A stretch of 64,000 bases of DNA, taken from contig NC_134025.1 in the NCBI RefSeq assembly GCF_964204645.1, forward strand, positions 6,634,001-6,698,000, written 5' to 3'. Under the pieces are notes generated by a model, which made no database searches, was not told the DNA's origin, and worked only from the letters and a program-made list of their open reading frames with translations. Position numbers and translations under genes: made by a program. How positions within the stretch are numbered: position 1 is the stretch's first letter; each line of letters begins with the position of its first letter. This DNA is from Tubulanus polymorphus (taxonomy: Eukaryota > Animalia > Nemertea). This document shows, piece after piece, positions 2,011-64,000 of the stretch.

Positions 2011-2767
2011 TAGGCGTCATCGTGAAATCGTAGATTAGATAAACGAGAGTCCATGATTAGATTAACAACGAACGGAGCTATTTTCATTAACTAAGAATAA
2101 TACCCGATCCAAATCCATAACAAGAGAGTGATGATTATTGAAAATCAAGAAGCCCGCATGCAATCGGAAATGATGATCCGGGTTAGAAACGCCTGTCACT
2201 GTTTATTTAGTAACTTATTCTCGCTATATGAAAAAATAAACATCAAACATTCAATAAATCAATATTGTCAAACAGATTCTCCATTCCGATTGCCTGTTGT
2301 ATTTTTGCCGGGTATTCGTGTGAACGGGTGAGTGAATAATTGCACCCGGGCAAATTCATAACAGGCAAAAGATACAGGTCTCGGTCTACATTCAAAATGC
2401 ATATAAATATATATTTGATATGACTCGAAGTATAACATTCATCACAACGATTTAGTAACTGCAGATACGAGTTATAATTTATCCAAGATACAAGTCATCT
2501 TTATTAGTGCTAATAAGTTGCTTTGAGTAGTAATAACTGCATCTGGATATTCTTGAAATATTTGGCCAATGATTGGCCGCACATTGTTTAATTAGTTTTT
2601 ACCGAAAATAGTAGTTTCTGAGAACAGCTGTTATACATAATGGGCATGTAGACATAAAGGCGTCTCTTAAGGCAAATAAAAAAGATTAAACGTTTATAGT
2701 ATTACTGTGGTGTTCTATATAACCTCAGGATTTCAGTAGTTTGGAGAAGATCAACGAGACGATCACC

Positions 2768-3710
2768 ATGTTGCTGGGTCGTGTTCTCCTGGCTGTTACT
2801 GTATTTTCGGTTGCAGACGCCGCTATTTTTAGAGGGATTTATCAAAGTAAGTCACGTTGAAAAGGAAAGCAAAACCTTTTCAAAATTGTATGTGTTCGCA
2901 CGCACCATTATCTGCGTTGCTGTGAAGAAAAAAATGATATACTAAGTATTTTTTCAGGTACATGCGAAGGGCTGAATTTCAGTGCTGTCTACGATAAAGC
3001 CACAAACAAAACCAAGTATGAGATATATAATGAAAATGGGCGTTGCGCAAAGGCTATATGCACTCCAAGAAACTCCTTCATGAATATAACATCTGTTTTG
3101 AAAACGGTTTACACGTAAGTTATTTTTCCCGTTCGCAATAATCATGAATGATACTTCGACTTACTTAACTTATGGTCAATTCATGTTCTTTTCAAGTTGA
3201 TCACATTGTTTAAAATAGATAGATTTAACCGACATGTGAAACTCAATGAACAATCTCGAGCCCGGTGAAAGCGAAACACTCATAAATGCGTTTTAGACTC
3301 CTTAGTTTTAGAGTTCATTCTTCGAAGAATCATCAGAATATTTGACATATATCTGCAAGATTTTTAGATTGACCATCGTATGTTCACGCAATTTAAATGC
3401 GCTGTCATCAATATTATATGAGTCGATTATGTGACACAATAATATTGTACATTTTACTTTAAACAGGTGTGGAATAGCAATATACAATGCTGTGCCATGT
3501 GAATACAAAAATATGATTGAAAGTGAGTGTTACTTCGGAAGATTGTCAAATGCAACTTATCCAGGCTGTTGTTCTTCCCATCAGAAGATTTGTCGCCACG
3601 ACAAAAACAGCGAGTATTTCAAACAATCAACATTTACAGAGTTTAAACAGGAAAATAACGATAAGATCGCTTTATGCGCAATTACTACTGCAAGCTCGGG
3701 GAGTTATTAA
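2768..3710 (+). CDS. Secreted single von Willebrand factor type C domain (SVWC)-like protein, 3 exons (2768-2846, 2958-3114, 3467-3710), ~159 aa
   Basis: Signal peptide MLLGRVLLAVTVFSVADA; Cys pattern C..CxxxxC..TCG..C..YPxCC..C typical of SVWC (Vago/La1-like); both introns have gtaagt donors and compatible phases (1, 2); TATATAA at 2716, AATAAA at 3816. Confidence 0.8.
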
Positions 3711-5891: not shown

Positions 5892-21190
<15,299 letters not shown>

Positions 21191-34200: not shown

Positions 34201-37200
34201 AGTTGGTCCAAGATAACTGGCGGATAAATATCATAGTAAAAATTAACTTTTAATAGTCACTATGTCAACAATCCACTGGTTAAGTCTGACCAATTTTTGA
34301 GCGACTGGCCGATGGATGAAATCGAAAAGATCAAAGATACGCACGACTGAGAATTACTATTTTCTTATCATACGCAATCGCCACGTTATCCAACATAGGT
34401 GAAACAGACACGAGACAATTCTGTAACCACGATGACGCTAGGTCGGCATTTTCTTGTTGTTCAGTAGTTTCATCATCAACCTGCCAACCCCAATCCAGAT
34501 CATCTCCCCACCCTCCTGAATCATCATCTATTTATAAGACAGATAGGTACAATTAGCATTAAATGTAAAATGGCAATGTCGTGAAAGGTTCGATTCGACC
34601 AGAGGGGACAGATCCGAGAGAAAGAAGCAACACGTCTGGTTACTACGAAACCTTGGAAGTGACTGATTTTATTTCACATAGATGGAGAATAAACATAAAC
34701 AAGATGTCATCCACAGTAAATATATAAACACAAACCAGATGAGCGGCTTAGTAACCGAACTTTCGAAACACTCCCGGCGGCGGGAAGAAAAGATAGGATG
34801 TATAATGCCTATGTGCTATTAGGAATACCTATGAGGTTAATAAGCCTACGTAAAAAATGAGAAATTAATCAATTTCCAATTTCATATCAGAATCACTAAA
34901 TCTTCGATACATTAAGTTTGCATTACTCTTAATCTTCATTTAACACAAAACTGAGATTGCTTTGACATTAAACATTGACATTAAGCTTTGACGTTAAACT
35001 TTGACATTGCGTTTTCACTACAGAATTTAAGATGAATGGTGAGCTAGTGGACCCGAAAAGTACTGATTTGAAACGATAGACCTTGAAGGGACTATCGGGA
35101 TCCGTAGGATCTGATAGCCATAGAAATTTTGTGAAATTTCTATCGTTTTCACCGAGTTTTACATTTAAAAATGCCTTTTCAATATCACTTGTAAATGCGA
35201 CGTTTTTCGTGCGAAAGCGGATTAATATCTGCACAAGATCATTTATTAATGAAGGACCGCTTTCCAGACAGTCGTTCAAACTAGGATTATCCCCTTGTTT
35301 ACAACTACAATCATAAACAATTCTAATCGGTGTTGTGATTGATTCCTTTTTAACCGAGTGGTGGGGTATGTAATGGCCCTGGCTCTTGTCATCATTTTCT
35401 ACTATCTCAATAAATTCGCGTGAAAGTTGCTCTGCTATTATCGCATTATATGTCTGCCTCAGTTCTGGAGACAAGCGTTTAACCATAGATCTAGTTCTAG
35501 CGGTACAAATATCAAAATTGGTAGGGAGCGGTGGATAATCTTCTTTCCAAGGTAAATTCGCTATATATTTACCACTGGTATCGCGTTTAAGGTAATTGTC
35601 TCGATACGTTTCAAAATTCATTGTTTCAGATTTAATCGTTTCCTTGATGCCAATTACTTCAAGATCCCAGTAGTTAGATAATTTTGAGAATTCATCGTTT
35701 GAATGTATAGTATTCAAAAGACAGGTAGTATGGAGTACCGATGTATTCGCATTCAAATTGATGGGTCCTGATAGAAGGAACCCGAGTTTGGAACTGACAG
35801 CTGTCGGGCCAGCTCCTCTAACCACTTCATTCTCTACGATCGACCAGTAATAATCAGCACCGATTAATAGATTAATTTCACAATTGCTGGTGTTGACGTA
35901 CGGTGCTAATGGTAAATTTCGAAGGTACGGGTGATTTGTCACAGCAAGTTTTACATTGTTCTGAATTGGTGGACATATTTCCGGTACAACTAATGCACGT
36001 AAACCAATTTCGCCTTTACGCGTACGAAGTTTTAAATCTATACTCCGTAGAGTACGTGCCCCAGGCGAATTGTCACCAAAGGTGGAAATATTTACATCTT
36101 GCTTTTCAAATTTGTCCAATCGGACACCTAATTCATTTACCGACTTTTTAGTGATGAATGAGCACTGCGCTCCTTCGTCAAACAAGATATTTACCGTGGT
36201 CGAATTCGAACCATAATTTATTTGACCAATAGCCGATTTCAAGAGAACAGGACTTGAAGTTGGAGCTATATTGACATGAATATTTTTTGATTCAATATGC
36301 GTATCAGTATTTCGATCTATATGAATAGCAGTGTGGTGTTTGCCTTTGCAAACCTTACAACGATATTTCGATTGGCAAGCTGTTACCATGTGATTGCCAA
36401 AACAGTTATAACACTTACGATTTGCCTTTATGATGTCTTGTCGCTTTTTTGGGTTAACGATTATATCGCATGAGAACGCCGTATGTGGACCCTTGCAGAA
36501 CGCGCAACTGTTGTTTTTCGAGGCCGGATTTTTCCTCGTTTTAGTGCTTATATGAAGAGCGGATAATTTTTCATTATCGAAGTTGACGCAGCTCGCTCCT
36601 GCCTGTGTAGCTTGTATTTCCTTTCGGATCGCGTCGCGTAGTTCTTTAAGTGTCCAGGCGCGGTCTCCGTGCTCCCGTGAAATTTGTGTTTTGACGGGAC
36701 TCGGTAGCTTATCGAAGACTACCGGAACGAGTATGTCACCGAACGCATCTTCCGATTTCCCGAGCGCGCGCAATCCTCGAATATATGTTTCCAAAGAATC
36801 GTAAAATTCGCGTAGACTCTCGTGATCCTGCGGTGGCTGCAAATCTAATAAAGCTCTGATGTACGCGTTCACGATCTTGTGAGGTTGACCGTATCTTTCT
36901 ACTAAGATCGTCAGAGCTTCTTTGTAGTTAGCGCTAGTTATTTGCAGACCTTCTATGGTACGCGCTGCTTCGTCAGTGAGTTGTGCGACCAAATATTGAA
37001 ACTTCTGGATATCGTCCAAATGCGGATCGCTATCGACGGCTGAGATGAAATTATCGTAGAAAGTAGACCATTTCAAAATGTCACCATCGAAATTTGGGAG
37101 AGCCAATTTTGGTAGATTGACTTTTTTACTGCCGGTTGAGGTAGTACTGCTTCGATTGATGGTACTTACAGATTCGTTTAGCGATTGTGGTTTTGGTATC

Positions 37201-38178
37201 TTCGCTAGTAGATTATCCAAGTTCAGTTTGAATCGACCGAGTTTGATTTGTATCTCAGTGAGATAATCATCTGATTCAACTATAGTGTTAGTTAACTCGG
37301 TTTCATCAACGATTTCATCCATTAATTGTTGGTCTAATTGTCGTAAATATTCGAATTTTGTGAACAGCGCGTCGATTAAAGTGGAGAACGGTTGAACAGT
37401 TTCCAGAGTTCTTGAACTTTCATCGACGAGTAGAATCTCTGCTAGTTTTTCTTCCGTTTTTCCGAAAATCTTCGTCATTTGGCCCCGTTGGGCCCTTCTG
37501 ATTGCCGTTAGCCTTCCTTCTGACCCCATCCTGGTCACGGCACCAAAATGTCGTGAAAGGTTCGATTCGACCAGAGGGGACAGATCCGAGAGAAAGAAGC
37601 AACACGTCTGGTTACTACGAAACCTTGGAAGTGACTGATTTTATTTCACATAGATGGAGAATAAACATAAACAAGATGTCATCCACAGTAAATATATAAA
37701 CACAAACCAGATGAGCGGCTTAGTAACCGAACTTTCGAAACAGGCAACTATAGACAAAGAGGACTTAGTAGAAGTCTTAGGTTACAAGTAATGACTACTA
37801 TACTACTCTGGATGGAGTGTCCACTGATGACTGCACAAGGGCTTATCGATGGGCTTGTTGGACCATAATGATCTACTAACTATCAGTGATAATGTTCATT
37901 TTCTTATTAAACTGTTAAAGGAAATTATCCAAATCATGGATACAATTGATTTCAAATTATTCTAATGAAAAAAAATCATTTTTCTTAATTGAAGCCACCA
38001 TTAAAAAAATAAACACTATGGAAGCCCATCCTGTTCTGTCCAGCTGTGCTGTCAGTCAGTGTCTGTCCAGTCAGTGTGACTTACCAACTTGGTTTTCACT
38101 TTTTAAATGAGGAAATAAGTAATTTCTAACGTTCGTTATATCGTGAAAATTGGCGATAATGCTCAGTTGACACGCCAT
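25288..38178 (-). CDS. RAB3GAP2: Rab3 GTPase-activating protein non-catalytic subunit, roughly 27 exons (first 38178-38085, second starts 34527, last 25431-25288)
   Basis: N-terminus [26 protein letters not shown]; conserved [92 protein letters not shown]. Confidence 0.95.
25520..25617. mobile_element. MITE family A copy (diverged)
   Basis: Same internal TGAAAATGAACT..TTAACTCAGAGTTAA core and CTAGTTGCACAGT/ACTGTGAAACTAG ends. Confidence 0.75.
26704..26811. mobile_element. MITE family A copy, inverted relative to 12150
   Basis: Close reverse complement of 12150-12257 with TIR CCAGTTCCACAGTT. Confidence 0.85.
34186..34310. mobile_element. Harbinger-like MITE, family B
   Basis: Imperfect TIR GGCCAATTACTCAAAAGTTGGT / ACCAATTTTTGAGCGACTGGCC inside Rab3GAP2 intron 2. 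Confidence 0.6.
34968..37529 (-). CDS. BEL/Pao Gag-protease-truncated RT polyprotein (~853 aa from the ATG at 37529)
   Basis: Gag [25 protein letters not shown]; three zinc knuckles ([27 protein letters not shown]); protease ILFDEGAQ; RT N-half ([35 protein letters not shown]) then stop before YxDD; no RNase H or integrase. Confidence 0.95.
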   Translation of the reverse strand: MGSEGRLTAIRRAQRGQMTKIFGKTEEKLAEILLVDESSRTLETVQPFSTLIDALFTKFEYLRQLDQQLMDEIVDETELTNTIVESDDYLTEIQIKLGRFKLNLDNLLAKIPKPQSLNESVSTINRSSTTSTGSKKVNLPKLALPNFDGDILKWSTFYDNFISAVDSDPHLDDIQKFQYLVAQLTDEAARTIEGLQITSANYKEALTILVERYGQPHKIVNAYIRALLDLQPPQDHESLREFYDSLETYIRGLRALGKSEDAFGDILVPVVFDKLPSPVKTQISREHGDRAWTLKELRDAIRKEIQATQAGASCVNFDNEKLSALHISTKTRKNPASKNNSCAFCKGPHTAFSCDIIVNPKKRQDIIKANRKCYNCFGNHMVTACQSKYRCKVCKGKHHTAIHIDRNTDTHIESKNIHVNIAPTSSPVLLKSAIGQINYGSNSTTVNILFDEGAQCSFITKKSVNELGVRLDKFEKQDVNISTFGDNSPGARTLRSIDLKLRTRKGEIGLRALVVPEICPPIQNNVKLAVTNHPYLRNLPLAPYVNTSNCEINLLIGADYYWSIVENEVVRGAGPTAVSSKLGFLLSGPINLNANTSVLHTTCLLNTIHSNDEFSKLSNYWDLEVIGIKETIKSETMNFETYRDNYLKRDTSGKYIANLPWKEDYPPLPTNFDICTARTRSMVKRLSPELRQTYNAIIAEQLSREFIEIVENDDKSQGHYIPHHSVKKESITTPIRIVYDCSCKQGDNPSLNDCLESGPSLINDLVQILIRFRTKNVAFTSDIEKAFLNVKLGENDRNFTKFLWLSDPTDPDSPFKVYRFKSVLFGSTSSPFILNSVVKTQCQSLTSKLNVNV
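37528..37545 (-). other. Primer binding site complementary to the 3' end of tRNA-His
   Basis: TGGTGCCGTGACCAGGAT 3 nt downstream of the 5' LTR; matches the eukaryotic tRNA-His 3' end (...GTCACGGCACCA) from memory; its last AT overlaps the gag ATG. Confidence 0.85.
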
Positions 38179-42843: not shown

Positions 42844-45800
42844 ATGGGACTTTGTGGAAGTAAGGACGGTGTCGATTCAACACTGACATATCATTTGCAA
42901 ACGTGTCACGAACATGAAGCTGGAGTAAACTGTATGGCTGTGAGCGAAGATGGCTCGGTGATAGCGACAGGGAGCGAAGACCGAACCGCCAGACTGTGGA
43001 GTAGTAAGACCGAACGATGCGAGTGTATAGGTATACTGACCGGGCATCAGGATTACATCAACTGTATCCTGATCGAAGACAATTACGTCGTGACCGGTTC
43101 GGCCGATAAAACTATCCGAAAATGGGACATGGGTACATGCGAATGTGTGCTTGTCTTCAGTGGTCACAAGTCGCTTATTAATCGAATCATATGCAACGGA
43201 GATTTTATATTTAGCAGCTCGTACGACCGATCCGCCAGATGCTGGGATTTCGAGTCGGGGGAATGTATTCGGGTATTTAATGGACATAAACGAGGGGTCT
43301 ATCCCTTGATATTCATTCCCGGGGAAGAAGAAGAAGAGCCTGTAGACGAATACGACTGGGACGCTACGAAAGACATCCTCATCACCGGAGCGGCTGACTT
43401 CATGGCCAAATCATGGTCATTTGAAACCGGAAAATGCCTGAAAACTTACAAGGGACACACGGGTGCAATCACTTGTATGGCGACTGACGCTCTGGGCAAA
43501 GTGTTATTTACTGGAGGGTCAGATCAGTCGGTCCGTAGCTGGGACATAGCCAAAGGTGACCAGCTCAAACTATTCGAGGGCCACCAGGGAGCAATTATAT
43601 GTTTACAGGTAAAGGTACCAGCTGTCCACGCTCTCCAGCTGCACTCACGTCTCTCACTTTCTCTTCTTCCGGTGTCAATACCAAACACTCCCTTCATTTC
43701 TTCACTCTCCAACTTAAATTCCGTGTACCCAAAATGTAGATATCTCAAAATATAAACGCCTGATTTAAAGAACCTGCAATTGCCGATAAAAGAGATGGAA
43801 AAGAACATATCATAGAGGTCTTGCACGTGACGTCATGGTTTGTTTGCCAACCAGTGTTGAGATCTGCCATACATAACACAAGATAATAAAAAGCGGATTC
43901 ACAAATTTTGAGGGTCTGTCATGTAATTGAGTTATTGCGTTTGCTAACCAATACGGCGTAATCGCGTCAAAAATGACATTACTGCAAGACCTCTTACTCT
44001 ACTTCAGCATTGATTCCTTGAGCCGCAAAATGCGAAGAGGCCGTAAGAATTTTTTTCGAATCACAGCTACCTGCGTGTGGTTTACACGGCACCACGCACC
44101 TCTATCATGCTCCCAGCTTGAAGTAATTATAATAGTAACGCCTAGCTACCAGCTTTTGTTTTCCGTCACTATTTTGAGATCATGAGGCCACATCAAAACG
44201 ATAGCAATGTCTACTTTTAGAAATAGGGAAATTACTTTGAATGATCATCATTTGGATTTGTAATGAATATTGTATCTACAAATTCATTAATAAATACACT
44301 AACTCGTAATTTGAAAACGCCCATTCTAAATTTTGTTTCCCAATGGATTATATAATATTGCAATCAAAAGCGTCATCGCCATAGTCATCGTCAGCGGGCG
44401 CAACTTTCATGAAATGAAACTGATAATTGCCTGTTCAGCGTGCACCATTTCAAGGCTCGATGAGACAAAACTCAATGATGAGAATGTATATAATATATTA
44501 TGCCACTGTGTTTCATGTTAGCGCGCAGAAATATCTATTTTTCTCTTGTAAAAGTAATTGTTCATGTATCGGACTTCACATTAAGTGCCATTCGTTTCCC
44601 CTAGTTACAATATTTTGTTTATAGCTATAATTAAAAAAGAAACCACACCGACGTGATAATTGTTTATAGACTATTCACGTTGTTTCTAATTTCAATGTTA
44701 TTTTGAAAATATCAATTACGAAACCTTGTGGGTGTCCATATCAAAACAGTATACGATAAGTTGATCGTCAATCAATGGGACCAAAATGGACACTTACCAA
44801 TTCCAGATTTTTGCAGAAATTTCAAGTTTGATTCCTCGCCGTGTGTTGTTTTTCAATATTTACCTAAAATATTACGGCGATTATTAATCTATATGCATTT
44901 ACCACAACCAATGGTCTAAAATCCATAAGTAGGACACAATAAATAGTTTCCTTGCTATCTAAACGGACACGCGGCGTAATAAGTTTATGATCTAAAACGT
45001 GTTCATCAGCATCCTCTTCAGATAAAACAAATTCCTTATCAATCTGCTCTCTTTTCTCAAAATCATGTCGTTATTTGAGCGGATTCATAAAAGCTTTTAT
45101 AATCGCCATGTTTTTACGATTAGTATTAATTTCCCCCACAATAAGCACATGAATAAGGTAATAATCACAGTCTTTACTGAATTTTGATTTCTATATATCT
45201 GCCATATTATGATACGTTACAAAAATCAGCTGATTATTTCTACCCTAAATCAAATTGGATTTGACGATACCGTACTACAATAGATTGTGCACCAATCTAA
45301 TTATGCATTTAATGTTCTCGGACATGTGCAGTCGTAATAAATGTAGAAAAAAATACCAGAAAATTCTACATAAAAGAATATGGCTTCATCCAAATATGGA
45401 TCGATTCGACTGCAGTCTTTCCAACATTCAATTGAGATAAGAACCCCGTAAACACCACTTCTAAACAGCAATTTCAACAGGCACATCCGCTTCCGCTTCA
45501 CTCGAAATACGCCAGAAACTGTCAAACCGACGCAGAAAGTTTGTGATACTTTTTTGACGTTTAATTAAAATATCATTTCTTCGAGTCTTGTTGGGAATTT
45601 TTGACGTGAGTGAAAACGATAAGAATTTTTATTTTGAACCCGTTCTCTCTCTCCAATCTTCGACTCGTCGATAAAGATGTTCGTGATGTTTGCTCGCGCT
45701 CGTGAATAAATAATATTTAACTGATACAGAAATAACTGGTCAAAATATCGAGTCAATTCAATTCGCTAGATGATAGTTGATATGTTACGCCCTATTTACA

Positions 45801-48800
45801 ACCTGACATTTAATCCACATCGTTTCCACTCTTAATTTCAGAAATTGATTACATTCTATTCAGATAGCCGCAGTTGAAATGTATCGATCTTGCAGATTGC
45901 CTCACAGCCGCCCTACTGATTTCATTTGAAATCTTTATTGAAAAAAAAAATCATTATTGGTTTTCACTTGAACGAGATCGCAGTAACACCTTCACTCAAT
46001 GGTCTCTATAGCAACTGGGGTTTTGTCAAATCAAATAAATAAATGCCGGACCGGTTTCTTTTCTAAATTCAATGTAGGTTTAGGAATATTTCTTAATTTT
46101 CTGTTTCGATTGGTGGGTTAGTGGCATAGGTCATAATGATTAACTCCTAGGTGCACTGCGATTATCATAGGAATTAGGGTTTGTAAAGGGTTTTTGGAAC
46201 GTCGAAAAATGACTATCCGAATCTATTTGATACGAATTATCAATCAGTTTTCATCGAGCTAAAATGTAAAGCATACCAATTTAAGTAGTCGAATAAACAC
46301 TCTAATCCGTATACACTGTGGATAATTGAAGAAGTCCTACAATTTTCATATGATAGAAATCATTGAAACCACAACGTTTCGGCGGTTGACTAACAGCAAA
46401 ATTACATTTTATCTATTTTTGCTTACAATCATCATCAGGTGGAATGACCAGAGACAAAAGTAACAAAGTATATGATATAGATATATCTACTATACTTTAA
46501 ACTCACAGGACGAAAATAGAAGATACATCATAATAAATTCTAACAATTAAAAGTTCGAATTGTGGGACTTCTTCAATTATCATACCCAATTTATGCGCAA
46601 ATATACATTTACCATGGCAAAAACTATTTCATCTTTTATCGAGCCGACATGCAAGGTTTGTCTAGATAAAATTGGTAACCACAACCTATGAAAACAATTT
46701 CCATGTACAATTTCTATCATCTCGTTGTTGTATTCGATGTCTGAGAAGATGTCGAGGTGTGAAATAATTATGATGTTTTATTCCTGGTCAGATATTAAGC
46801 AGGAATAATGAAAACTATGTGCCGAGAAAGATCCTTTAAAGTATCATCATTACTTTTTCTGACTTTGTACTTACCTCTCAATTCACTGACATGATATTTC
46901 GTTCATCACCCACCTATCAGGGCGATAATTATGTGTCCAGGGATCATAAAGAGTAGAATATCGCTACCTGGCGCCGGGGTACAGTGACAGATAACTGTTT
47001 ATTGCGGTGTAAATGGCCTTTAAATACAGGAATATGCTCAAATAACGCCATGCCTAAAGCCGATAAGAACTGGCAAGTGCGTATCATCGGCGAATATCAA
47101 TTAACCTTACCACGGACTTATTCCTGGGCAGACGATCGTCTAATTTGAATACGAACTCAATCGGCTCTCAGTAAATGCACGCTTTATAAAACTGAGTTTC
47201 CGTGACACACGTATACCTTCGAAAAAAACGCATTCGGTCGCAACGTACGGTAATTACTGCAAACAACAGTCATCGGTGGCTTTTGATTTTCCGCCGTTTT
47301 ACATTTGGAATCTGTTTGTCTTCACATCCGCTTTGACGTCATCGACAACAGCAACCGGCGTGATAGATGTTTTTCTAGGTGTTACTGATTCATATTGTAT
47401 CATCTTCTCTTCCATCGTTTCATTCGATTTACGTGAATATTCAAACAACCACAACCCGTATTACCTTACGCTTGAAAAGACTACTGTTTCATCATGCATA
47501 TTTGAAATATTCTAGATTGAAATCGAAAATCCAATCAAATCATGCTATTTTATTTTTCATGGACTAATTTAGGATGCGTGATTTCATTGCGTTTGAAAAT
47601 CAAAATTTTGAAGATTTTACTCCGATGTGTTTCGTCAGAATCTATAATTCTAAATCTTGAACAGTCTTTTTGCCCAAAAATGATTAAAATGAATAACAAA
47701 AATAGAGAAAATCTGTGCGCATATGCCAGTACCAAATGTATACATGTGAGGCATTTGGCTACCTCTACAGGCTATTGGGAAGACGATATCAATGTTTATA
47801 ACCTCACCAGCGCTTATTGCTGCATTGAATATATGAATGAGTAATATCATTAAAAAAGTTAATTATCAGCTGGTTTGATCGATATTTTCACTTTGTTTCT
47901 ATATTATTCCAATCCAGAGATATGAACGAATGAAAAAAAAATTAAATGGGGAAAAATATTGAGAAAAAAATCAACAACGCGGACCGAGTGGGTACCCAAA
48001 AACATGGCGCCTAGAAACTGTAAAAAGGCTTGTGTGATGATGATAGTAGGGTGTCTGTAGATGTTCCTCCAAAATGAGACACGTGTATGGTGGTGATAGA
48101 TTGGTGGTACCAGGGATGATAGTATAATTGATTTAAAAGGAGATTTACTATCATTTTGTTTGACGATAGTTCGTGATTCAATGTCACCAAAAACTGCGAA
48201 GAATCAGAGCTCCCTGTTTCAAGAAGAAGCAACTCCATTGTTATACGCCCATCTTTCAATGATTTTAGATGTCTGATATGTCTGGAAATTATACGATATC
48301 GTATGTTGAAACACCCCTATTCGCAAATAATGTTCTTTTACATCATTTTCATCTCGTCATCTGCCTGATTTTCACGTAGTATTTATTCACGCCGCGAGAG
48401 CATATATACCTCTGAAATGAAGTACGATTTCCTGATCAAATAACCATCATTATTAGACAAATAGACTGTCTCTCGGGGCTGCACTGCAGCCATTTCAATC
48501 ATCACCATTATAGTCGGTCGGTCAGTCATGTCAGTCACTTCAGGGGATTTTTGATATTCGTCTCTTTGGATCTGGAAAGCATTTCCCTCAACTGTAAGAA
48601 AAAAGGCCATCGGTTCGTTAACAGGGAAGCGCTGGAAGTTGCACAATGTTCTGAAAATGAACCCTTTAGAAATGACCATAAAGTAATGAGACAATGCCTT
48701 AGTGTCGCTCCATGATTATCAGTGGCATCAAACCTATTAACACGAAATCTCATGAAAACCGGGCAACAAATATCAATTTATGAGAATTGGACGGTTTCGC

Positions 48801-51800
48801 ACCATTAAACAAGCATATAACGTGTATCATAGAGCATCATTAGCAAATTGACATTTTACGTAGTTATTGGCGCTTATATTCATGTAACTGGCAGCCACAA
48901 TTCACCTAGAAATATCAGACGGGATTGTAAATACACCCGGGGCTCGTGGGAAGGGAAGAAAAGCACTTCATCGGCCGCAACTCTCGTGTCAACTGCTGTA
49001 GTATTAAAACCGGAATTCAACGCCGTATTTAGTCGACTCGTACGTTGTGTCAAGTACATGTGTGACGCTGGAGTGCCGTCATTTAAATGGCAATTTTGAC
49101 GTTTGAAATTAGTTTTTGAATGCAAAATGGCCATTTTACTAATAGATTGGTCGGTTCGATGACGGGCACCGCCCGTCGATCAGCTGCAGATTGACGTTGT
49201 TACAATGCGCAGCGTTAATTACGGTTTACCCATCTCAATCGAGTACAATCAAAACAATTAGTAAAATTTCATGACTGAATATCAGCTATATGCCATTAAG
49301 TTTCAAGAGTGATTTGATGAACGAATTTTCGTTTTCACAAGCCTGCAAAAGGTTCCGCAAAATTTCGGCCAAGTCGAAAGTAGACTCTTGAAAATATGTG
49401 AGTAGTGTACCAATGGCGTACTCGGCGTGCATGAAGTACAAAATTGAAAATGCGCAAAATGATGATAAAAATGCTAGTTCGAGACACGTCGATAACAAAA
49501 TTATTTTCTACCATCGGCCTTCATAATATGTGTGTAGGCTTTAGCCTCATTATATTTTTTTTCAATTTTGCAATTCTGCTATTTGGAATAGAGGATTGGA
49601 AGCTTTTTCATGTAGGTGTACTCGTCGGCGGGCAATTACTTAATTCGTATCTCTCCCAGAATAAACCATGCAAATTGAACATTCACCTCAAATCAACTTT
49701 TTCATTTTCCATTATCTTTTCATATCAAATTCTTATTCCTCATAAGTGAAAATATGCAAATAAACCTGTAAATTCATATCTTTTATTCCTCAAAAGTGAA
49801 AATATGCAAATAAGCCTACATTTTTGTAAATTCAAATTTTATAGGTGGTGAATAAGATCATGTACACAGGTAGCAGTGACCATACCGGTCGCTCGTGGGT
49901 TACAGAATTCGGAGATTGTACCAGAATATATCGAGGCCATAAGCATACTGTTAGTACAATCAGACTTCATGAAGGACTAGGTAAGTTTGTTCCTAATATA
50001 AAGCTTATACATCTAATTCTGACAAATCTAAGTTGACAAGTAAAAAAAAAAAGAACATAGAGAAACGGAAAAGTCAAAAGAGAAACGGAAAAGTAAGGGA
50101 ATCACCTGCTTACATTCGTATACATAAGACCTGTAACTATCCGCTTTGTATTCTGGTCTGGTATCAATTCGGCTCTTATCTCCGTATACAGACCAATGCA
50201 GTACCATCAAAAACATGATTGCAATCCTTTTTATATATGATTTATTGCTGCTATTTGCACATGCAATTGACCAGAATTAACAAGTTTACCCACCACCCTA
50301 ATCCAGTCCCTATATGAGCCTCTCCTCGCTGAGGTTTGCGGGGTTGGGGGATGGGGTTGGGGTGTTTACGAAACAGGTCTTTTTACTTTTCCCATAGTGT
50401 GGCGATTTGAACCACATCTGAAGGATAAAGATTAGATTTAAATTACGTGAATATATTTTTCAGTTATAACAGGATGTGGTGACGGTATGGCGCGGTGTTT
50501 TAACGCCAAGTCCGGTTCGTTGAAGCGTGTCCTCCGAGGTCACGAGTCCGCTGTCAACACACTAGAGGTCGCTACTAGTCACATAAAAAATGTTGTGTAG
50601 ATTATTATCATGTAAATACAACGAGAACTTCAAAATTACATGAAGGAATCTATAGCAGAGGCTATTCGAGTGCCGTCACAATGGCCATAAAGCGCGCTAA
50701 GCGGAAGTAAAAAGTTTTTGACGTATGAAACACGTGACGTGACTAAACCGCAATTTGTGATTCACTTCATCATTTTCCAGTTTCCAATTAAAGGTCTCAA
50801 CGTTATAAACAGTTTCTCATTTGAAGTTCTCGTTAGATAGCTGGAAATATATTGAGCGACTTTCCAATTTTTCAAATAATTCGCCAGTCTCGAAAGAAAA
50901 TATGTGTACGTATTTATGGAAAAGAATATTTGGGCGATATCCAAAAAGCTTTATCTGAATTTGAAATCATATGGTGAATTGTTTGTACATTGGATTGTTG
51001 TTCGCGTATGGTTTAAATGGTATAGCCCACACGTGCCAGTCGGGAACTACATCCTTTAGCCCAGACTGGACTTTCTGGTCAAGGAGCCCACCTTATAGAC
51101 CCCCTTCTAGAATAGTCGTAATCCGCACTTAACAGCACCAGCGTCTCATGTATATATACATTATCCCGTTATTTACTATCGTAATTCTTTTTGTTTTATC
51201 CATTAGTATTCACAACATCAGGGGACGCTATCGCCCGCTGTTTCGATGCCAAGTCGGGCTCACTGAAACGAACGTTTAAGGGACACGAATTATCCGTAAA
51301 TTGCCAACAGGTTAGATCTATTTATACGTTGAGATTACGAGGAGGGATTGTCGCCACTTGTTGCGGTTTTCCAGGTCCTGCGTTGTGAGAAATCCTTCAA
51401 ATCAAATTCGAGTTTTATATACTCTTGCGTCAATAATGATTTGTATTTTGTCTCGTCTCGGTCTTGTGTGCTATACGTATAGGGGTGCATGCCATGGCTG
51501 TATCCGGCATAGATATGGATCTAAACATCATGTCCTCGACAAAATAACCTGTTCGCTTCACACGCCTCACATTTGCCTGACTGGTATCTTCATCAAATAT
51601 AATGATATCATTTAAACTTCAAGCACAAACACAAATATATTCTCACACTCATGTGATTTCGATCATTCGAAATATTCGGAAACGATCATTTACAAATGCG
51701 ATATTTCATTCGTTAAATAGCAATATTGACGTCGTTGCCACTAACATTTTGTGCTTGTTATCTAGATGAAGCTTGAATGAACCAATAGAGTTTCTATGCG

Positions 51801-54029
51801 TTGCTTAGCAATTATTGAATGCCTCAACTTCACCAGCATTAGAATCAATGTTTTAGCACTCAACATTCTTCCTATTTATGTGTTCTATGTAACTTGTCTT
51901 GTCTTGATGTGTTGTGTTATTCGTATCACGTATTTGTTTGTGCTTTTCTTCGTGATGCACGTGTTACATGAGCTCGGTGCTTGTAGTTCGTGAATGTACA
52001 TATTACCATCTTCCGCGCCATTATAGTTTATCAGAACCCATCTAATCGCGTGAGGATATCCGATGTCAAAACGAGCATTAGCAACACAAACAATCGTTAA
52101 TGGTTGAATTAAAAAGCTTTTACGGTCTAAAAAGTTTGTCTCGGATTGCGGCCTTTTAGATTTGTTGAAATTGCGGTTTTAGCTTTCGATGAACTCCACG
52201 AAATCAGAAGCGCGTTACAAAAACATTCATAATGTTTCCAAAGGTCAATTTAAAGAAATCGTACTCCATTTGATAATGTTTCCGTAATCATACATATTTT
52301 TGGTGATGTAAGGCTTATTTTTAAGGAATTATACCACTATACTCGTAGATCATTTTATCGTTTTATTTTCGGCAACCTTTTACAATTCGTTTGAACGCAT
52401 TTCGCGTGAACGTATAGGTTCCAGAGCAATTATATAATTATTTCTCAGTCGCTCATCTCACTGTCTGTTGTCTAGTTCGAAATCATTCGTGTATTTGATT
52501 AAACATGCACACAGCACGATAATCCAACTAATTGCCCTTCCCCAAGTCACGATCGCCTTTTCACCATCGGCTTACCAACGATCGTTGCTATGAAATAGAA
52601 ATTATCGTTCAAAAGCTTCGACCAAATAGTTTGTACTAACCATATCAAAATGGTTAATACGTAACTCAAGGTTAAACTAGAAGTGTTTACATCACAGAAG
52701 ACTATTTAGTGATATCATGATATCATGATTTGAACTATATGAATTGAAACCATGCAGCTTTTCGCTGTATTTTGGGCGGTTCTCGGCTAACCCTGATAGC
52801 AAATTGGCTAAAAGTACTTTTGAAATTGCGACGCCGGATATGTGACAGACATCGCAATCGCTTCGTGGAACGGTTATTGTAGAATCGTCTACGTTGATAT
52901 AAACCAGACTAAGCTACCGATATATCTTAGGCCTACATGGCATAATTCCAGCGCAAACTTTCGAGAGGATTTTGTTCCAGCGGCGCTCTACTTTAGAATG
53001 AGAATTGATCTTCGATTGAATATGAATGTGAATTCCATTCATAACTAAACACAATAGAAATGTAAAGAGTTGCGTGATGTTATTAACAAATCAAACTAAC
53101 ACCGAGTTGTATATACCCCATAGTTTCGGCAATATTAGTTTCCTCTATTGCGATGAAATGCTCCACTTTCAATAAATTTCATGGCAATTTCGTGATTTTT
53201 AAGACTTGGTGGACCGTATCCTGTTATATAATAAATATAAAATTATGTATTCGAAAGATTTACGGATGAAACATCTGAAAACTTCTGAATGTTACCTTGA
53301 AAAACAATTAAATAGAACGCATAATGGCGATCCGTTTGGAAGCCTTGTTCCATTCGACGTTATTCCTCAAACATTTCTTATTTTTGGACATCGATTTATT
53401 TTCGTAACCTTTTTGTTGAACATGCCCTCCTTCAGCGGAATATCATGCTCACCTCGAAAATGGAGGGGGGATGCGATTAATTCTACTGACATTTTGAAAC
53501 GAGGACCGACTGTTGTGGTTATGATTCCCTCCACACTTCACGCAATTCAGTTATCGTAAAAATGGCTTTAAATGACGTCGGAAAACTTTAAATAATTCAC
53601 TGTATATCCAATTGCTACAGAATATTGTTTGAAATTTATCAATTTTGTCAATACTGTGTATCTATTCGAGCCGAATAACTTACAAAACATATACATTTGT
53701 TGATGTTGCAGATAGTCGATGGAAGACTTTTCACCGGTTCGCATGACGGAAGTGTCCGCGTCTGGGATATCACGGGTATGAAGGATGACGTCACTTTCGG
53801 ACGGGCAGACGACAAGAAAAACTCCGAGCAAAAGAAAGAGATCGAAAAACTGAGCGGGATGAAAACTGTCGATGGTAACCAGAATGGAATTAAAAATGGT
53901 GACAGTAAAATCATGATCGGAGATGAATACGCGGAGAGTAATATGCAGAACGGAAATACTGAACACCTTATTGCTACTTCAGATATGACGTCACAAAACA
54001 GAGAGAAAGGTCCTAGAGATAGATTCTAA
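42844..54029 (+). CDS. WDR86: WD40-repeat protein WDR86-like; exons 42844-43608, 49845-49980, [50464-50567 OR 51207-51310], 53712-54029; ~440 aa
   Basis: Repeats colinear with WDR86 as recalled (TGSEDRTARLW, FSSSYDRSARCW, GHTGAI, GD..AR.F.A.SG, SHDG.VR.WD); phases 0/1/0 are consistent only when exactly one 104-nt exon is used. Confidence 0.88.
43812..43994. mobile_element. Degenerate MITE
   Basis: AGAGGTCTTGCACGTGACGTCA versus inverted TGACATTACTGCAAGACCTCT. Confidence 0.55.
46321..46581. mobile_element. MITE with 24-bp TIR
   Basis: GATAATTGAAGAAGTCCTACAATT / AATTGTGGGACTTCTTCAATTATC (1 mismatch); no clear TSD. Confidence 0.65.
49720..49819. repeat. ~50-bp imperfect tandem duplication just upstream of WDR86 exon 2
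   Basis: TTATTCCTCA(T/A)AAGTGAAAATATGCAAATAA occurs twice 50 bp apart. Confidence 0.8.
50464..50567 (+). CDS. WDR86: WDR86 alternative exon 3A
   Basis: ttttcag|...|gtcgct; 104 nt, phase 1-0; encodes VITGCGDGMARCFNAKSGSLKRVLRGHESAVNTLE. Confidence 0.8.
51207..51310 (+). CDS. WDR86: WDR86 alternative exon 3B
   Basis: cattag|...|gttaga; 104 nt, phase 1-0; encodes VFTTSGDAIARCFDAKSGSLKRTFKGHELSVNCQQ. Confidence 0.85.
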
Positions 54030-54250
54030 CTTTGATTCTGTCCATATTTCTTAGGATTCGGCTCTATTGATAGTTTTCTTAGGTGTAACTAGTCTCGTAG
54101 CTGCGTTGATATCATTCCAATCTACCAAATCAGGAGAATCTAATCTCCCGATTACTTCTCTCCTTTTCTATTGAAAATTAGGAAAAAGAAATCCGCAAAA
54201 TTCTAAGATAAAACAAATCCCTTTAGAATTAAAGCTTAGATACGTTATTA

Positions 54251-54340
54251 CAGCCAACCCCCGATAAATACAACCCCTTTACAACCACCACCCCCCACCT
54301 TGCACCAGGTTTCCGGGGGTGGTATATCGGGGGTTGACTG
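54251..54340. mobile_element. 90-bp Tc1/mariner (pogo-like) MITE downstream of the WDR86 stop
   Basis: TA|CAGCCAACCCCCGATA...TATCGGGGGTTGACTG|TA; ends related to the 7650-8359 element. Confidence 0.8.
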
Positions 54341-56261
54341 TACTCCCGCAATACACTTTATTTCTACAGAAAATACAATCTGTTATCTATTTTTCTCCAA
54401 ATCTCTACTCTCACAAATTGAAATATGGGTAAACCTAAGAAGCCCTCATATCTTAGTTTTGGAAATATGTTACAGATTATCCCTAGCTCACAAAATTTCT
54501 GAAAAATAAGCACTTCTTAATGGTGCATGTAACCTTGAAATGAGATAAACTCATTAATGACTCATTACATTCACCTTATTTTCACCTATGCCGGGTATAC
54601 AATCTGTGTTTCCCCAGCAGGGTGTGAATGTGTTTTTAGAAATGTATTGGTTTGGTGAATTTTGTAATATAAATCAACTACGATTTCATCTTAATAGATT
54701 TATTCGTTTAATCGTCTAATATACGTAATACAAGCACCATATTATCCATAAAAATGTAAATATAGTACCCAAATAAAGTGGAATCAGTTGGAAAATGGTT
54801 CTTTTGGGCCAGCTCCGCAGACTTACCAAGTCCAAAATGGGCTGAATGTGTATGTTAAGACTGGTATATGTTAAGATTCATTTCGCTGAAGGTTAGTTAT
54901 AGCAAAAAAGTTGATCGCCCGGCGTTATTTTGGTATTTCGATCGCGGAAAAGATCTCTGGTTAGACTGACTTCGGGGTTCATTATAACCACATAGACTAG
55001 TATCGATACCGCTAATCAGATTATGGATAGATAAAGAGAGTATTCATCGATAATCGTCGGCAGTCTCTACTCTGACAAGAAAGGTTACATGTGTGTAGTC
55101 GTCCATTACGAACGATGTTGGATGATTTATTTTCCGTGTAAACCATCTATCTACGACAGCTGACGTTGCATCCCTCGCTCTCACGAATGCAAAAACAACA
55201 TGCGCGCCAACAATATGTCCAACGTTAAAAGCCACATTTTCAGCTTGTTGAAAAGTAAAAAAGCGGCTCTCAACGACGTCCATTACTTGACATCGAAGCG
55301 TAAAAACATTATCTGTGTAGAAATTTGTTGCGCATTCGAATCATGATCTGTGAAACCATGGAGTCCATGGTAAAAACAGACAGGAATATTGATTATTCTG
55401 TTCGGTAATCTCTTAACTTTTTTTTGTAAAATCAGAGGTGTTGGTCATGATGCGTGTAAGATACGTCTTCGCACAAAAAACTGAAATAGCGAAGAATCGT
55501 CGCTTCTCGCCATGAAATATTGATCAGGTTTTCGTGCACCGTCATCGCACTTTCCTTAAAGAAAAACATCAACAAAAAGCCCCGATGCAGGCATATGATT
55601 AATGACGTTAGAAAAAGATAGACATCAGATCGTGTGATCGTGTTGCTAAACATTTTCGAATTTAACCAATTACGCAGAAAGTAACATTCGCGCGGCTTAT
55701 GTAATAATAATGTTACGCGATTTAAGACGTTAGACGTTCGAACAATTACACCTTTCATTTGCTGTATCATCAGTCAAGCGTAGGCAGGCGAAGTGAAGTA
55801 ATATATCAAACTGTCAGTAACCATCGCTCTAATCGCATGAAAAGGATTATTTGACATACCGATCATTTATCACGAACTTTCGTTTTTGCTCGCACCCGCA
55901 GCTCTTCGTCGTTGCTTATCGGTCCCCATATTTGCTTAACATCAATTGAATTACGGCAATTGCTTGAAGCGGTTGAAATTAAATTTGTTCTTCGAAAGTT
56001 AAACCCGCATTCGCGCCGGGAATTGACGACATCGTCAACTGTCGCCGAAAAGATTAAACGATGGTGTATGTGAACGACTATTTTTAGCAAAACATTGTTA
56101 GATTAAATGTATATCATTTTGTCATGACGATATTATTGCTTATGGCAAATCCATTTATCCATTTCATTACACGAATTGCGCCCAGACTGTTAGAGTAAAA
56201 GGTCCGACACCTAGAATTGAACATTCAAACGTATTTATGATATACAGTTTAGGCCTAATAC

Positions 56262-56599
56262 CATCCGCCCCGGCAGGGATTCGAACCTGATGGCATCGAG
56301 ATTGCCACGGCACGAAACCCTGCCATAATCGACCGTGCGCGCAGATACATGCGCAGTTCAGATGATGTGATTTTTAGCCAATCAGAAATCCCGTTTTATT
56401 TTAGCCCGGGTTTTCCCATTTATAGTTCTTCCTTGAATTTTTCCTCAACGATTATACAACGAGCAATCTGATTGGTGCCGCCAGTTTTCGTTCGGAAAGC
56501 TGCGCATGTACCTGCGCACCCGGTCTACTGATGCAGGGGTTCGTGCCGTGGCTGAGTGTAGCGATGCCATCAGGTTCGAGTCCCTGCAGAGGGAGGATG
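56262..56599. mobile_element. Foldback/Mutator-like non-autonomous element with long TIRs and 9-bp TSD
   Basis: ~130-bp imperfect inverted arms; GCCTAATAC at 56253-56261 and 56600-56608. Confidence 0.85.
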
Positions 56600-58590
56600 G
56601 CCTAATACGTGAATGGAGACTTGCATGTCTCACATGTTTATGTCTATATGACCTTTGTGTTATTATATACTTTTCTCATCTATGGTGAAGTTGTGATATA
56701 TATGATAATTATACTGCTGACTAATAAAGCACCTTTGGAGAGAAAAAATATACTGGACTTTACTGTGTATCAATCTTCGAACACATCCGTCCGTATCTTT
56801 GCTATACGTATTTCAAGCAAAAATATTGAAGATCCGTCCCACAGCTTTTCTGTTCGAGCCGTCCTTTCAACGTCAAATAATCATCGCCATGATTTTGGAC
56901 CGCATTTCAACCGTGTATCGTTTTTAAGTGAGTTGAATGCGAATGGTAATGATAATCTATTGTCATCAACGTGTCCAAGTCAAGAGCCAATCAATCGACT
57001 TTGATTTTTCTCATAATTTTGACGAATTATTTCCAGCGATAGGTGTGTGTATTGTCGGTTCGAGAAAATTGACAATTGATAATTCATTCCATTTCGCTAA
57101 TCCCAGTAGTGTAAAATATATACTATATTCTTAGGAGATCCACTTCGTGAAAAGGATTTCCGTGTATACATTGCATTGAGAATTGAATAAGATGTAATTT
57201 AGATGTAAAACAAACTGCTTAATATACGTTTGAGTTTTTCTGTAATTCACCTGCATAAATAATCAAATTGAAGGTCATACTGCTACGTAAGCCTAAAAAT
57301 CGGTGGTTGCTGAAATTCAATGAACGCTTATGATGTTATGATGTTATAATGTACGTATTTAAAATACAAATACTGCAAATAAAATAATTTTCAAAGATTT
57401 CTGATAAGTATCTTGTGTTGTGTGGTCATTTGGTTCGTTCCTTGTTTACTTTCTTACAACAAAATTGTTTCGACGCGAAATGTCCCGATGATTTTTTCGA
57501 TGCTAGAAAATAGAAGATAATGACGATCAAGATGCACTCGCAAAATATTTCATGGTTCATAGATTCGAAACGTGCTATGGCGAACACACCGAAAGTACAT
57601 ATTTGGATTTTCGACGAAGTTTGAAAGTTTGAAAACATCGTTGTACCGAATTACTGGGTTGATAGGTAGAAAAAGTTATATTCATCCTTATCTTCAATAC
57701 CTTTGAATAATCATTTTTTGTCAGAATGATAAACTTTGAACAGTGAAAACTTTCCTCATACTTTGACGAAGTTTCTTGTTTTGGTTTATTAAAATATAAT
57801 CAATCAAGCACCTGAATAGTGAAAGTGGCCGGGAGCACTAGGGCTGAAACAACAAATCTTTACTGTCGACCGATTTGAATTCGATCAATTTGATTACATG
57901 AAAATTTCTGTGCATCTTTTCCACAGACACCTGCGGCTCAGTTGTTAAGAATCACTCACAAGAAACGCAAGAAATATAGAGACCTTTAAATCTAAAGACA
58001 AATAAAAGAAAACTTCTGATTCTGAAGAAGCTCTGCGTTCTAAATTGTCACAACGATACATCTAATTATCCCCGGAAAATTTTTGAAAGTACATATTTCG
58101 AGTTGTTAGTTTTAGCTTCTTCGAAGTGGAAGATCGGGCGAAAACATAGGCAATTGAGATTTTACGATACCCAACTGCTGCATATAATACTTTAAAAGGT
58201 GTAAATTTAACTCACATGCATGTGTGCTTTTTTATTGTCGGTATTAATTTGAGTTCCATATTCTTTTGTACATACATAAATGACAACCAAAGTCAAAGTA
58301 TTTTCACAGCAAGTTTTAAACAAAAAATGCGATGTTCAACTACGAAGAAAATGCTGGGTCTCACAAACTTCTTAGCGATAGACGTATAGAAATCCATTTT
58401 TCTCGGATCACTAAAACCAGAAATTGGTTCCAAATAAAACAGTAAACATTATTCAAACTGTTTATATCCATTTGAATGGCTGATAATTCCTTGGTAACCG
58501 GGAAATGTGTTTCGTCAGAGATAGTTCTCGATAAGTAGCATCATCCAACGATGACCAAAACGTCTGTCGGGCGGTGTAGAGTAATCGTTC

Positions 58591-61900: not shown

Positions 61901-63131
61901 TTCATTATATGAAACTGGTTTCTTTACATGCGTTGTCACCACTTGTTGAAGTGTTCTTGCGCGTTGCCTATGTAATTGTTATTGCGCTGATAATGACCCT
62001 TATAGCTAGCAGTTTCGTAATTTCTATTTGCAAAATGGGTTTGGTTGTTAAAAATAACTTCAATGTAAAAGCTTATACTTAGTACATGTATGTATTAAGA
62101 TAATTCACCAAACCCTAAAATTGATTGTTTTCTGTTTGTTTTGACTGACAAATGATAACCCACATTTGATAATATACATTTCCTTGCAATATTTGGTTGA
62201 TAAGATACACTGGGTTTTCGTTCCTAAGAGTCAGTTTCATGTGACGGCATTGAGAACAGGTATGTTGTGTGTTGAGTCTCATGAATTTCTGGTAGCCTCA
62301 ACTTCCTTTCGTATGGCTTGGATCGGTTTCTATTGTAAGATTTGACCGAACATCTAGGCCTACAAAGTGTGTACCTACCATAGTCAGTGGTTAACCTGGT
62401 TGGAGTTCTCACAAATTGACATTGATGAACTAAAATGGATAGGAATAAAATGAATGAATGGTATGAAAGGCATAATATTTTAAATCATTGATATAAATTC
62501 ATTTATTTTAGTTGTAAAAGACTTAATGTTTATGCATGCTGTGTAATGACATATTATGTATGTCTAATTAGCGCAATTATGCACAGGTATATATGCCATC
62601 AGGCTTCCTTTGGAAAGGTAACACGATGTCCTTGGCCCATACTTGGTGTGTTTGTCTCTCCAGAAATCTAATTAAAGTCTATGGGCCTACAATCAATATA
62701 TCCAAAAAACCTGATATTACCTTGAATTGGAATGAACTATTCAAACTCTAGGGTCAAAACTAAGTCAACTTTTAAGCTGGGTCTGAACATCCTCATTGAC
62801 TTATGTCGATTCAATTGATTTTTTTTACAGATCAAGTGGCTGAAATGGTGAAAGCATCATGAGAATTCTTCACGTAATGTTTTACGCATCAATATGATCA
62901 TACCCAAAAGCTCCTTTAATTATTCCAGCAGGTGTACATGATATAGAAGCATGGATAATTCATTGGAAAAAGACATTATCAAGATATGTTGCTTGCATCA
63001 ATTATTCAAATTGACTACGCTTGATAAATGATCATAGTAACTGAATCAATTATTCCTCCATGTAGTCACTCAAAGAAACTGATCCTTCAATGATTCATAT
63101 CTTGATTCTCTGTTTTACTGTTTCTGAATAG

Positions 63132-63929
63132 AAGATTTCAAAATGATTTACGTAAATCCGCGTGTAATTGGTAATTTCTGTGTCAATCCAAATCAGCCAT
63201 CAATGAACAGAATCAGCTGCAATCATACGACTGAATCAATAGATGATACGTCCGGGAGTGGTTGTAGCGATGATTTCTCTATTGTAGAAATAAACAATGC
63301 AGATATCGGAGATCAGTTCGAAAGTTCGATGAAAATTGAGGATATTACGAATTCGCTACGACGAATTCGCCGTGGAAGACAACAGCAGATGCAGCAGCAG
63401 CAGCTGAATGAAAATGTCTCATCACGCGATATTGAGAAATCGTCGAACGGTCATCAGGATGGATTTTTCAAACAAGCTCGGAAAACCCTTTCGACGTTCG
63501 TTTCTCAAATCATCACACCAGATGCGGATGTTAACAAAAATGTCAACGAACCTTCTGCTTCACCAATTCTGCGATCTAAACCCACGCCTCAAATAGCTGC
63601 CCCATTGATGGCAGAACCGCGCCACATTTTTGAGCACTCCGAAAGTAGCAGCACAAATGTTTATTTACTCGATCACCATTCAGAAGAAAGTGCATCAGCT
63701 ATATGTAATACATTCTGGCGACCGAGTTTAACGTTTAACACGTATAGCCATGGTGATGACTTAATCAAATTTACATCACTATGGCCAAAAGAAAATGTAC
63801 TGCCAGCATTGTTATTGGAGGCGTATCATTCAACATCATTGAGAAAATCGATTCTAGAAATTAGTAAATTAGTGATACGCTGTGGTCCGGTGTCCGTCTT
63901 AAAATCATTGTTGGATCTTCATATTATTG
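63132..63929 (+). CDS. 798-nt coding exon of an unidentified gene continuing beyond the window (first in-frame ATG 63143)
   Basis: Stop-free frame of ~266 codons bounded by pyrimidine-rich ...ctgaatag acceptor and G|gtaagt donor; absent from the ORF track because the frame has no stop before the window edge. Confidence 0.75.
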
Positions 63930-64000
63930 GTAAGTACGATTCATCTTATAGTGTAGAAGTTTCTTTTTGTGTTTGGATTAAAGATCTAGATTTTTTGAGG

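Follow-up and report, generated by a model that had tools for sequence, protein, structure and literature searches.

Tandem copies of WDR86 exon 3 in the nemertean Tubulanus polymorphus, a probable pair of mutually exclusive exons

The Tubulanus polymorphus gene for WDR86, a scaffold protein that has received little study, contains two neighbouring versions of its third coding exon, referred to here as exons 3A and 3B (A and B). We consider it probable that these are old tandem copies, intact and incompatible in reading frame, which are likely spliced singly to produce two isoforms of 440 residues, each predicted to form an eight-bladed propeller. The pair is real and very probably a functional case of mutually exclusive exons (MXEs) of a familiar class, one that is wider and older than was first seen.

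Identification of the WDR86 gene

A six-frame scan of the window, the 64-kb stretch of T. polymorphus DNA analysed here, recovered the remainder of a four-exon WD40 gene on the forward strand: coding exon 1 (42844..43608, 765 nt, ending in phase 0), coding exon 2 (49845..49980, 136 nt, ending in phase 1 at the consensus donor TAG/gtaagt) and coding exon 4, which runs to the stop codon (53712..54029). The spliced B form (42844-43608, 49845-49980, exon B, 53712-54029) is exactly the T. polymorphus RefSeq protein P0001 (440 aa). Exon 1 matches P0001 at 100% identity and also many proteins named WDR86, including the top matches. In a quick tree built without exon 3, P0001 falls in a 26-row group with vertebrate WDR86 (support 93, unstarred) and in a 13-row lophotrochozoan group (support 95); a Haliotis paralogue and three other WD40 proteins lie outside the 26-row group. 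For this protein Pfam reports only propeller families. The name WDR86, given in the initial annotation from the sequence alone, agrees with this grouping and with the names of the top matches; judged by its sequence, the gene is a WDR86 orthologue.

Intron 1 contains high-copy interspersed repeats at 46280-46480 and 47770-48031 (in public run X1, a summed depth of 2000-3000 with numerous loose ends). Elsewhere in the window, the reverse strand has an 890-codon stop-free segment (34971-37640) between near-identical direct repeats (~34530-34860 and ~37500-37870), which looks like an LTR retroelement, and a calpain-family protease exon (13747-13995; Pfam Peptidase_C2, E 1.8e-17). The forward strand has a 291-codon open frame running past the window end (63128-64000) with no Pfam match, and plus/minus self-matches mark an imperfect inverted repeat at 56170-56685 with ~200 nt per arm.

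Two copies of exon 3 with incompatible frames

Exon A (50464..50567) and exon B (51207..51310) lie on the forward strand, separated by a 639-nt GT-AG intron (50568..51206). Both are 104 nt long, in phase 1-0, and open. Exon A has an AG acceptor and the donor GAG/gtcgct, whose weakness was flagged at the outset and amounts to 5 of 9 consensus matches; exon B has an AG acceptor and the donor CAG/gttaga, with 7 of 9. Exon B is part of the RefSeq model P0001, the single isoform annotated for Tubulanus (its cluster has n=1 and no A form). Exon A lies outside that model; we regard its splicing in Tubulanus as very likely. Contigs from three public runs contain no GT-AG joint at the exons, a result that is uninformative about expression.

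The two exons are identical at 62 of 104 nucleotides. A recount returned exactly the numbers first reported, 21 identical residues out of 35, with different codons at 15 of the 21: the same residue occupies 20 of the 34 whole codons (14 of these with different codons), and the split first codon is Val in both, again with a different codon. The local alignment of A with B exceeds 300 of 300 shuffles. In four comparisons of their flanks (200-600 nt), 200-287 of 300 shuffles match or beat the real sequences, and the flanking introns can stand as unrelated, as they had been described. A and B are thus homologous neighbours encoding the same protein segment, equal in phase and length, free of in-frame stops and bounded by canonical splice sites, as is expected of tandem-duplicated MXEs. 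A profile search of the 64-kb window at low threshold found no third copy. A contig from public run X1, which is possibly the window's own source, spans 46552-56000 with zero differences, so the exon pair is not an assembly error.

Exons 1, 2, A and 4 join into a frame of 440 aa, as do exons 1, 2, B and 4. Inclusion of both A and B leads to a stop at 354 aa, 44 nt ahead of the last coding junction, and skipping of both leads to a stop at 311 aa, within the last coding exon, so the early statement that both or neither would break the frame is correct. The further claim of an obligatory choice of one of the two holds for the protein frame and goes too far for splicing. Under the 50-55-nt rule of nonsense-mediated decay (NMD), the positions of these two stops make NMD not reliable for either product. 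Moreover, the full joint of A and B is barred by frame, but A and the sequence directly behind it contain eight in-frame GT sites, three of them with 5-6 of 9 consensus matches and hence as strong as the donor of A, and through these cryptic donors a minor product joining a modified A to B could arise.

Selection on both copies

The divergence between A and B is concentrated at silent sites, with pS at 0.87 (saturated) and pN at 0.24. Out of 35 codons, A and B agree at 25 first, 27 second and 11 third positions, and they differ at 10 of the 12 four-fold sites. Conservation with synonymous change extends over the whole of A (codons 1-7, 8-25 and 26-35). A neutral-decay simulation kept the frame, the splice sites, at least 21 residues and the observed third-position divergence in 0 of 20000 runs at each of 7 distances; because that model holds B fixed and lets only one copy decay, with no indels and no slow synonymous drift in B, its outcome indicates long constraint on both copies and is still compatible with a recent loss of A. 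When copies in the same position were compared between species, pN (0.00-0.22) was well below pS (0.33-0.87) in 9 of 9 pairs. This comparison, run as pS/pN, answers to the dN/dS check suggested in the initial annotation, and together with the simulations it bears out the reading proposed there, that near-saturated synonymous change with a conserved protein reflects long purifying selection, which appears to act on A and B alike.

Exon 3 copies in related genes

Invertebrate relatives were compared, as had been recommended, among both proteins and genomic loci. Lineus longissimus, a nemertean of a different class from Tubulanus, has two RefSeq isoforms, X1 (XP_064646055.1) and X2 (XP_064646056.1), both of 461 aa, whose 13 residue differences all fall in the exon-3 segment. 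X2 is identical to exon B at 27 of 35 residues; X1 is identical to exon B at 24 of 35 and to exon A at 20 of 35, and exon A shares 20 of 35 with X2 as well. The two isoforms swap the same segment as A and B, X1 being at most a putative orthologue of exon A. X1 and X2 are automated RefSeq models. Like the Potamilus and Sinanodonta sequences, Lineus X1 was placed as a first or last copy from its sequence similarity and not from the order of copies in the genome.

Selective divergence in the exon-3 segment is also found in two further pairs of close relatives, the bryozoan P0004/P0130 and the unionid P0008/P0021. P0130 is a single 434-aa frame on a 2049-nt contig and matches exons 1, 2 and 4 of the metagenome locus L026; its exon-3 segment matches the upstream L026 copy at 97% and the downstream copy at 49%. 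As one frame on a contig of that length it is apparently spliced, with the upstream bryozoan copy used alone; no other observation points as directly to the splicing of an upstream copy by itself. None of the 149 stored proteins with an exon-3-like stretch (at least 40 bits) contains two full copies, and the isoform sets of Pollicipes (P0109/P0187 and P0116/P0149) and of a rotifer (P0035/P0188) show no difference in the exon-3 segment. Two gene models are likely mis-annotated: Nucella P0048 fuses two partial exon-3 copies, and Sinanodonta P0021 omits exon 2.

Genomic DNA of relatives was available as 49 metagenome loci from one scan, which we sorted with an exon-3 profile. Two or three tandem copies follow exon 2 in 10 of the 49: three in L010 and L014, and two in L013, L016, L019, L020, L024, L025, L026 and L029. 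As L019/L020 are near-identical, and L024-L026 likewise, these amount to 7 distinct genes, which are bryozoan-like, mollusc-like or from an unplaced lophotrochozoan lineage; L019, L026 and L029 group with Bugula (support 100), L015/L016 are closest to Potamilus, and L014 falls within the lophotrochozoan group without a closer placement. In every copy examined the ends are AG/GT, the phase is 1-0 and the length is 104, 107, 110 or 113 nt; each of these lengths is 3n+2, and therefore any two, or all three together, break the frame. A single copy is present in eighteen loci that reach from exon 2 to exon 4, namely 15 rotifer-like loci with tiny introns (L005 and L006 placed by test, the other 13 by likeness to them) plus L031, L041 and L049. 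L031 lies outside the lophotrochozoan group in a quick tree, and the rotifer-like single-copy loci share the intron positions of exon 3. Of the remaining loci, four lack introns and 17 are cut short by the end of the contig. The truncated set includes L011 and L015, each showing a single copy, and L017, which has no copy in the 3957 nt from exon 2 to its contig end and is 97.5% identical to the two-copy L016 over 1.9 kb. No annelid or cephalopod locus was identified in this set. The great age originally proposed for the exon pair is thus supported by the saturated pS as well as by tandem copies in a nemertean of another class and in other lophotrochozoan genes.

The unplaced lophotrochozoan lineage has three copies at L010:2057-3883 and L014:10392-11586, and the contigs of L013 (532-1578) and L011 (1276-1382) break off after two copies and one copy, respectively. 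In this lineage copies 1 and 2 are without the GH histidine and mostly have insertions of 1-3 residues in the d-a loop; between L010 and L013, 8 of 8 changes in copy 1 are synonymous. These copies are a more radical version of the exon-3 switch.

History of the duplication

In exon trees of 34 columns the copies group by position within each lineage with variable support, Tubulanus B with Lineus X2 (97/89 and 95/91, and 94/94 unstarred in a third tree), and the first and second copies of molluscs and of bryozoans each with their own kind, so the duplication is likely older than the splits sampled inside each lineage. The branch of A is 0.22-0.37 long versus 0-0.06 for B, and A has no supported sister, its grouping with Lineus X1 appearing at no support level. 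Mollusc first copies group weakly with bryozoan second copies (bootstrap 81-97, never starred), as might be seen if the copies arose independently or changed order. None of 8 groupings (p 0.10-0.60) and none of 3 (p 0.25-0.43) was rejected by AU tests; among the 8, species-specific duplications had p 0.18 and 0.10. In the 8-grouping test the 'upstream' label went to the middle copies of L010/L014, with copy 1 of L010/L013 absent, and the 3-grouping test used the true first copies. By parsimony of distribution, the chances of a single lophotrochozoan origin are about even. The fuller history is tentative and, taken whole, rather doubtful: one origin in the lophotrochozoan ancestor after the rotifer split may have been followed ever since by a tissue-regulated switch of the top-face partner, with one lineage expanding to three versions, two of which dropped the GH histidine and rebuilt the d-a loop.

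Predicted effect of the swap on the propeller

AlphaFold2 models of P0001 (the B form) and of Lineus X1 (A-type) have 32 strands each, with a mean pLDDT of 84.6 overall and about 97 over the exon, and the folds nearest to the model are the eight-bladed Tako8, ODA16 and Fbw7. WDR86 is predicted to comprise eight WD40 repeats in one propeller with no other domain. The structure comparison proposed in the initial annotation yields two 32-strand propellers, with Lineus X1 standing in for Tubulanus A. In the model, blades 1-5 come from exon 1, as does strand a of blade 6. Exon 3 (residues 301-335) encodes blade 7 from strand b to strand d, continues through the d-a loop and makes up most of strand a in blade 8; its two boundaries fall inside strands. 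Exon 4 adds the end of strand a, strands b and c of blade 8 and a low-confidence tail.

The hot-spot position rules for the WD40 top face set out in PMC3419727 place D-1 at Gly306, R1-2 at residue 330 and R1 at Asn332; D-1 and R1 are the same in A and B, and R1-2 differs only as Ala/Ser. Across 6 pairs of copies, positions 302, 309 and 329 differ in all six and positions 305, 323, 328, 330 and 333 in five, and positions 306, 307, 310, 317, 318 and 327 never differ. The changes cluster around the b-c turn (304-309) and the d-a loop (328-330), which by established WD40 geometry lie on the top face. The differences between copies also correlate with how variable each column is in 14 single-copy orthologues (rho 0.48, p 0.004). 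With D-1 and R1 unchanged and the differences lying partly on variable columns, a change of partner is plausible rather than demonstrated. The original picture of two propeller isoforms with a swapped blade surface is retained as far as the predicted isoforms go and needs redrawing as to the surface, the swap taking in strands b-d of blade 7 and strand a of blade 8 with D-1 and R1 constant. That the swap serves to adjust the loops on the top face where blades 7 and 8 meet (304-309 and 328-330), and hence partner affinity, is a proposal to which we give an even chance.

Choice between the copies and alternative explanations

The 639-nt spacer had been taken to exclude steric exclusion. Its length alone is insufficient for that, since distant branch points enforce steric blocking in OGDH, as reported in PMC7969005; what argues against steric exclusion in Tubulanus is the AG-free zone of the spacer, only 63 nt long, and the lack of a CTRAY motif in its first 80 nt in a motif scan. 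Incompatibility of U2 and U12 splice sites finds no footing either, gtaagt, gtcgct and gttaga all being U2-type by sequence with no U12-type donor among them when set against the U12 consensus. Exclusion hard-wired by competing RNA pairings (a docking site with selectors) or by a distant branch point is known from other MXE clusters (PMC5740500 and PMC7969005), and over 7 genes 2 of 24 intron pairs, in L010 and L029, beat at least 99 of 100 shuffles. There is, however, no common pattern among those pairs, all 3 Tubulanus intron pairs score no better than shuffled sequence (equalled or exceeded by 45-80 of 100 shuffles), and no intron element convincingly shared by Tubulanus and its relatives was found, so that we regard hard-wired exclusion as unlikely. 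Inverted repeats flanking A and B were rejected as a signal, being not above shuffles. With these other modes eliminated, regulated competition between weak exons is favoured. Donors match the consensus at 5-7 of 9 positions in the upstream copies of 6 relatives, 6-8 in last copies and 4-6 in rotifer-like single copies; the rotifer-like exons are equally weak, and donor weakness is therefore not special to duplicated exons. We lean slightly towards a scheme in which A and B would be competing U2-type exons with weak donors, chosen through regulated exon definition by tissue-specific RNA-binding factors, and in which wrong products would be lost as unfoldable truncated propellers, not by steric block or RNA pairing.

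Three other accounts concern the use made of A. Partial use of A through a cryptic in-frame donor joined to B, adding residues, has in its favour the eight in-frame GT sites and the fused Nucella model; but the inserts of 4-38 residues would sit inside blade 7 in the model, A stays conserved, with synonymous changes, up to its 3' end and the Lineus isoforms are equal in length, which leaves this account barely credible. That A was once an alternative and has recently gone out of use in Tubulanus, with only B spliced now, fits the weak donor, the single RefSeq isoform, the longer branch of A and the replacement in A of residues that orthologues commonly share (Phe/Tyr by Ile at 302, Asp by Asn at 314). 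Against it, A has kept its exact length, frame and AG/GT ends along with Thr303, Gly306-Asp307, Ser-Gly 317-318, Gly-His 326-327 and Asn332, and the equally weak upstream copies of the 6 relatives include one type seen spliced; we think such a loss improbable. Somewhat stronger, if still on the unlikely side, is the account in which both copies are alternatively spliced and near-equivalent, each being kept since transcripts that use it must fold. The constancy of D-1 and R1 and the location of the differences, largely at columns variable among single-copy orthologues, both speak for it. Yet the position-specific identities of the copies are kept across species within each lineage, the L010-L014 lineage conserves three copies of which two lack the GH histidine and have a remodelled d-a loop, and redundant copies would be expected to disappear over such times. 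Single splicing of two distinct copies therefore remains the reading that we prefer.

Relation to known mutually exclusive exons and significance

The commonest type of tandem-duplicated MXE has a length that is not a multiple of three, as in 377 of 629 human clusters (PMC5740500), and substitutions of tandem-duplicated exons are described as ancient and often convergent (PMC9741552). Like the MXEs described there, A and B are homologous neighbouring exons of similar length and the same frame that encode the same protein segment; unlike validated sets, the Tubulanus pair is known from genomic sequence, with A a putatively spliced exon. Two further studies offer the closest parallels. Exons 5a/5b of Coronin-1D/CORO6 in tetrapods (PMC3203266) are likewise duplicated and exclusive and swap most of one WD40 blade; the specific function of that propeller is reported as unknown and fine-tuning has been proposed. 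CORO6 belongs to a different WD40 family and its exons are vertebrate-restricted, whereas WDR86 is eight-bladed and its cluster lophotrochozoan, with 2-3 copies. The coq-2 exons 6a/6e (134 nt) and the mrp-1 MXEs of helminths, annelids and molluscs (PMC7434440) are also of equal 3n+2 length, spread across invertebrate phyla and absent from mammals; a single or repeated origin is left open for coq-2 and an independent origin is reported for mrp-1. Unlike that of WDR86, the coq-2 switch has a tested function, the choice of enzyme substrate (PMC7434440).

No description of the WDR86 exon pair was found in the literature, as covered by titles, abstract openings and the supplements of PMC5740500. 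WDR86 has no match in those supplements (10 files in text form) and 'WDR' none in the main text of PMC9741552, and among the matches listed for the literature WDR86 occurs in omics gene lists only. The initial view that the pair is undescribed holds to that extent, but the pair already stands, unremarked, as the automated RefSeq isoforms of Lineus.

As a class, the mechanism is a familiar one. For Tubulanus, the present annotation likely misses an isoform, and the gene models of its relatives choose different copies or fuse them, which would distort comparisons between orthologues. Four lophotrochozoan lineages carry the cluster and rotifer-like loci a single exon, making WDR86 a test case for inherited versus convergent MXEs across phyla. 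A and B offer a natural variant pair for the search for WDR86 partners, and the long retention of two to three versions of a 35-residue segment points to the junction of blades 7 and 8 as a site of functional tuning.
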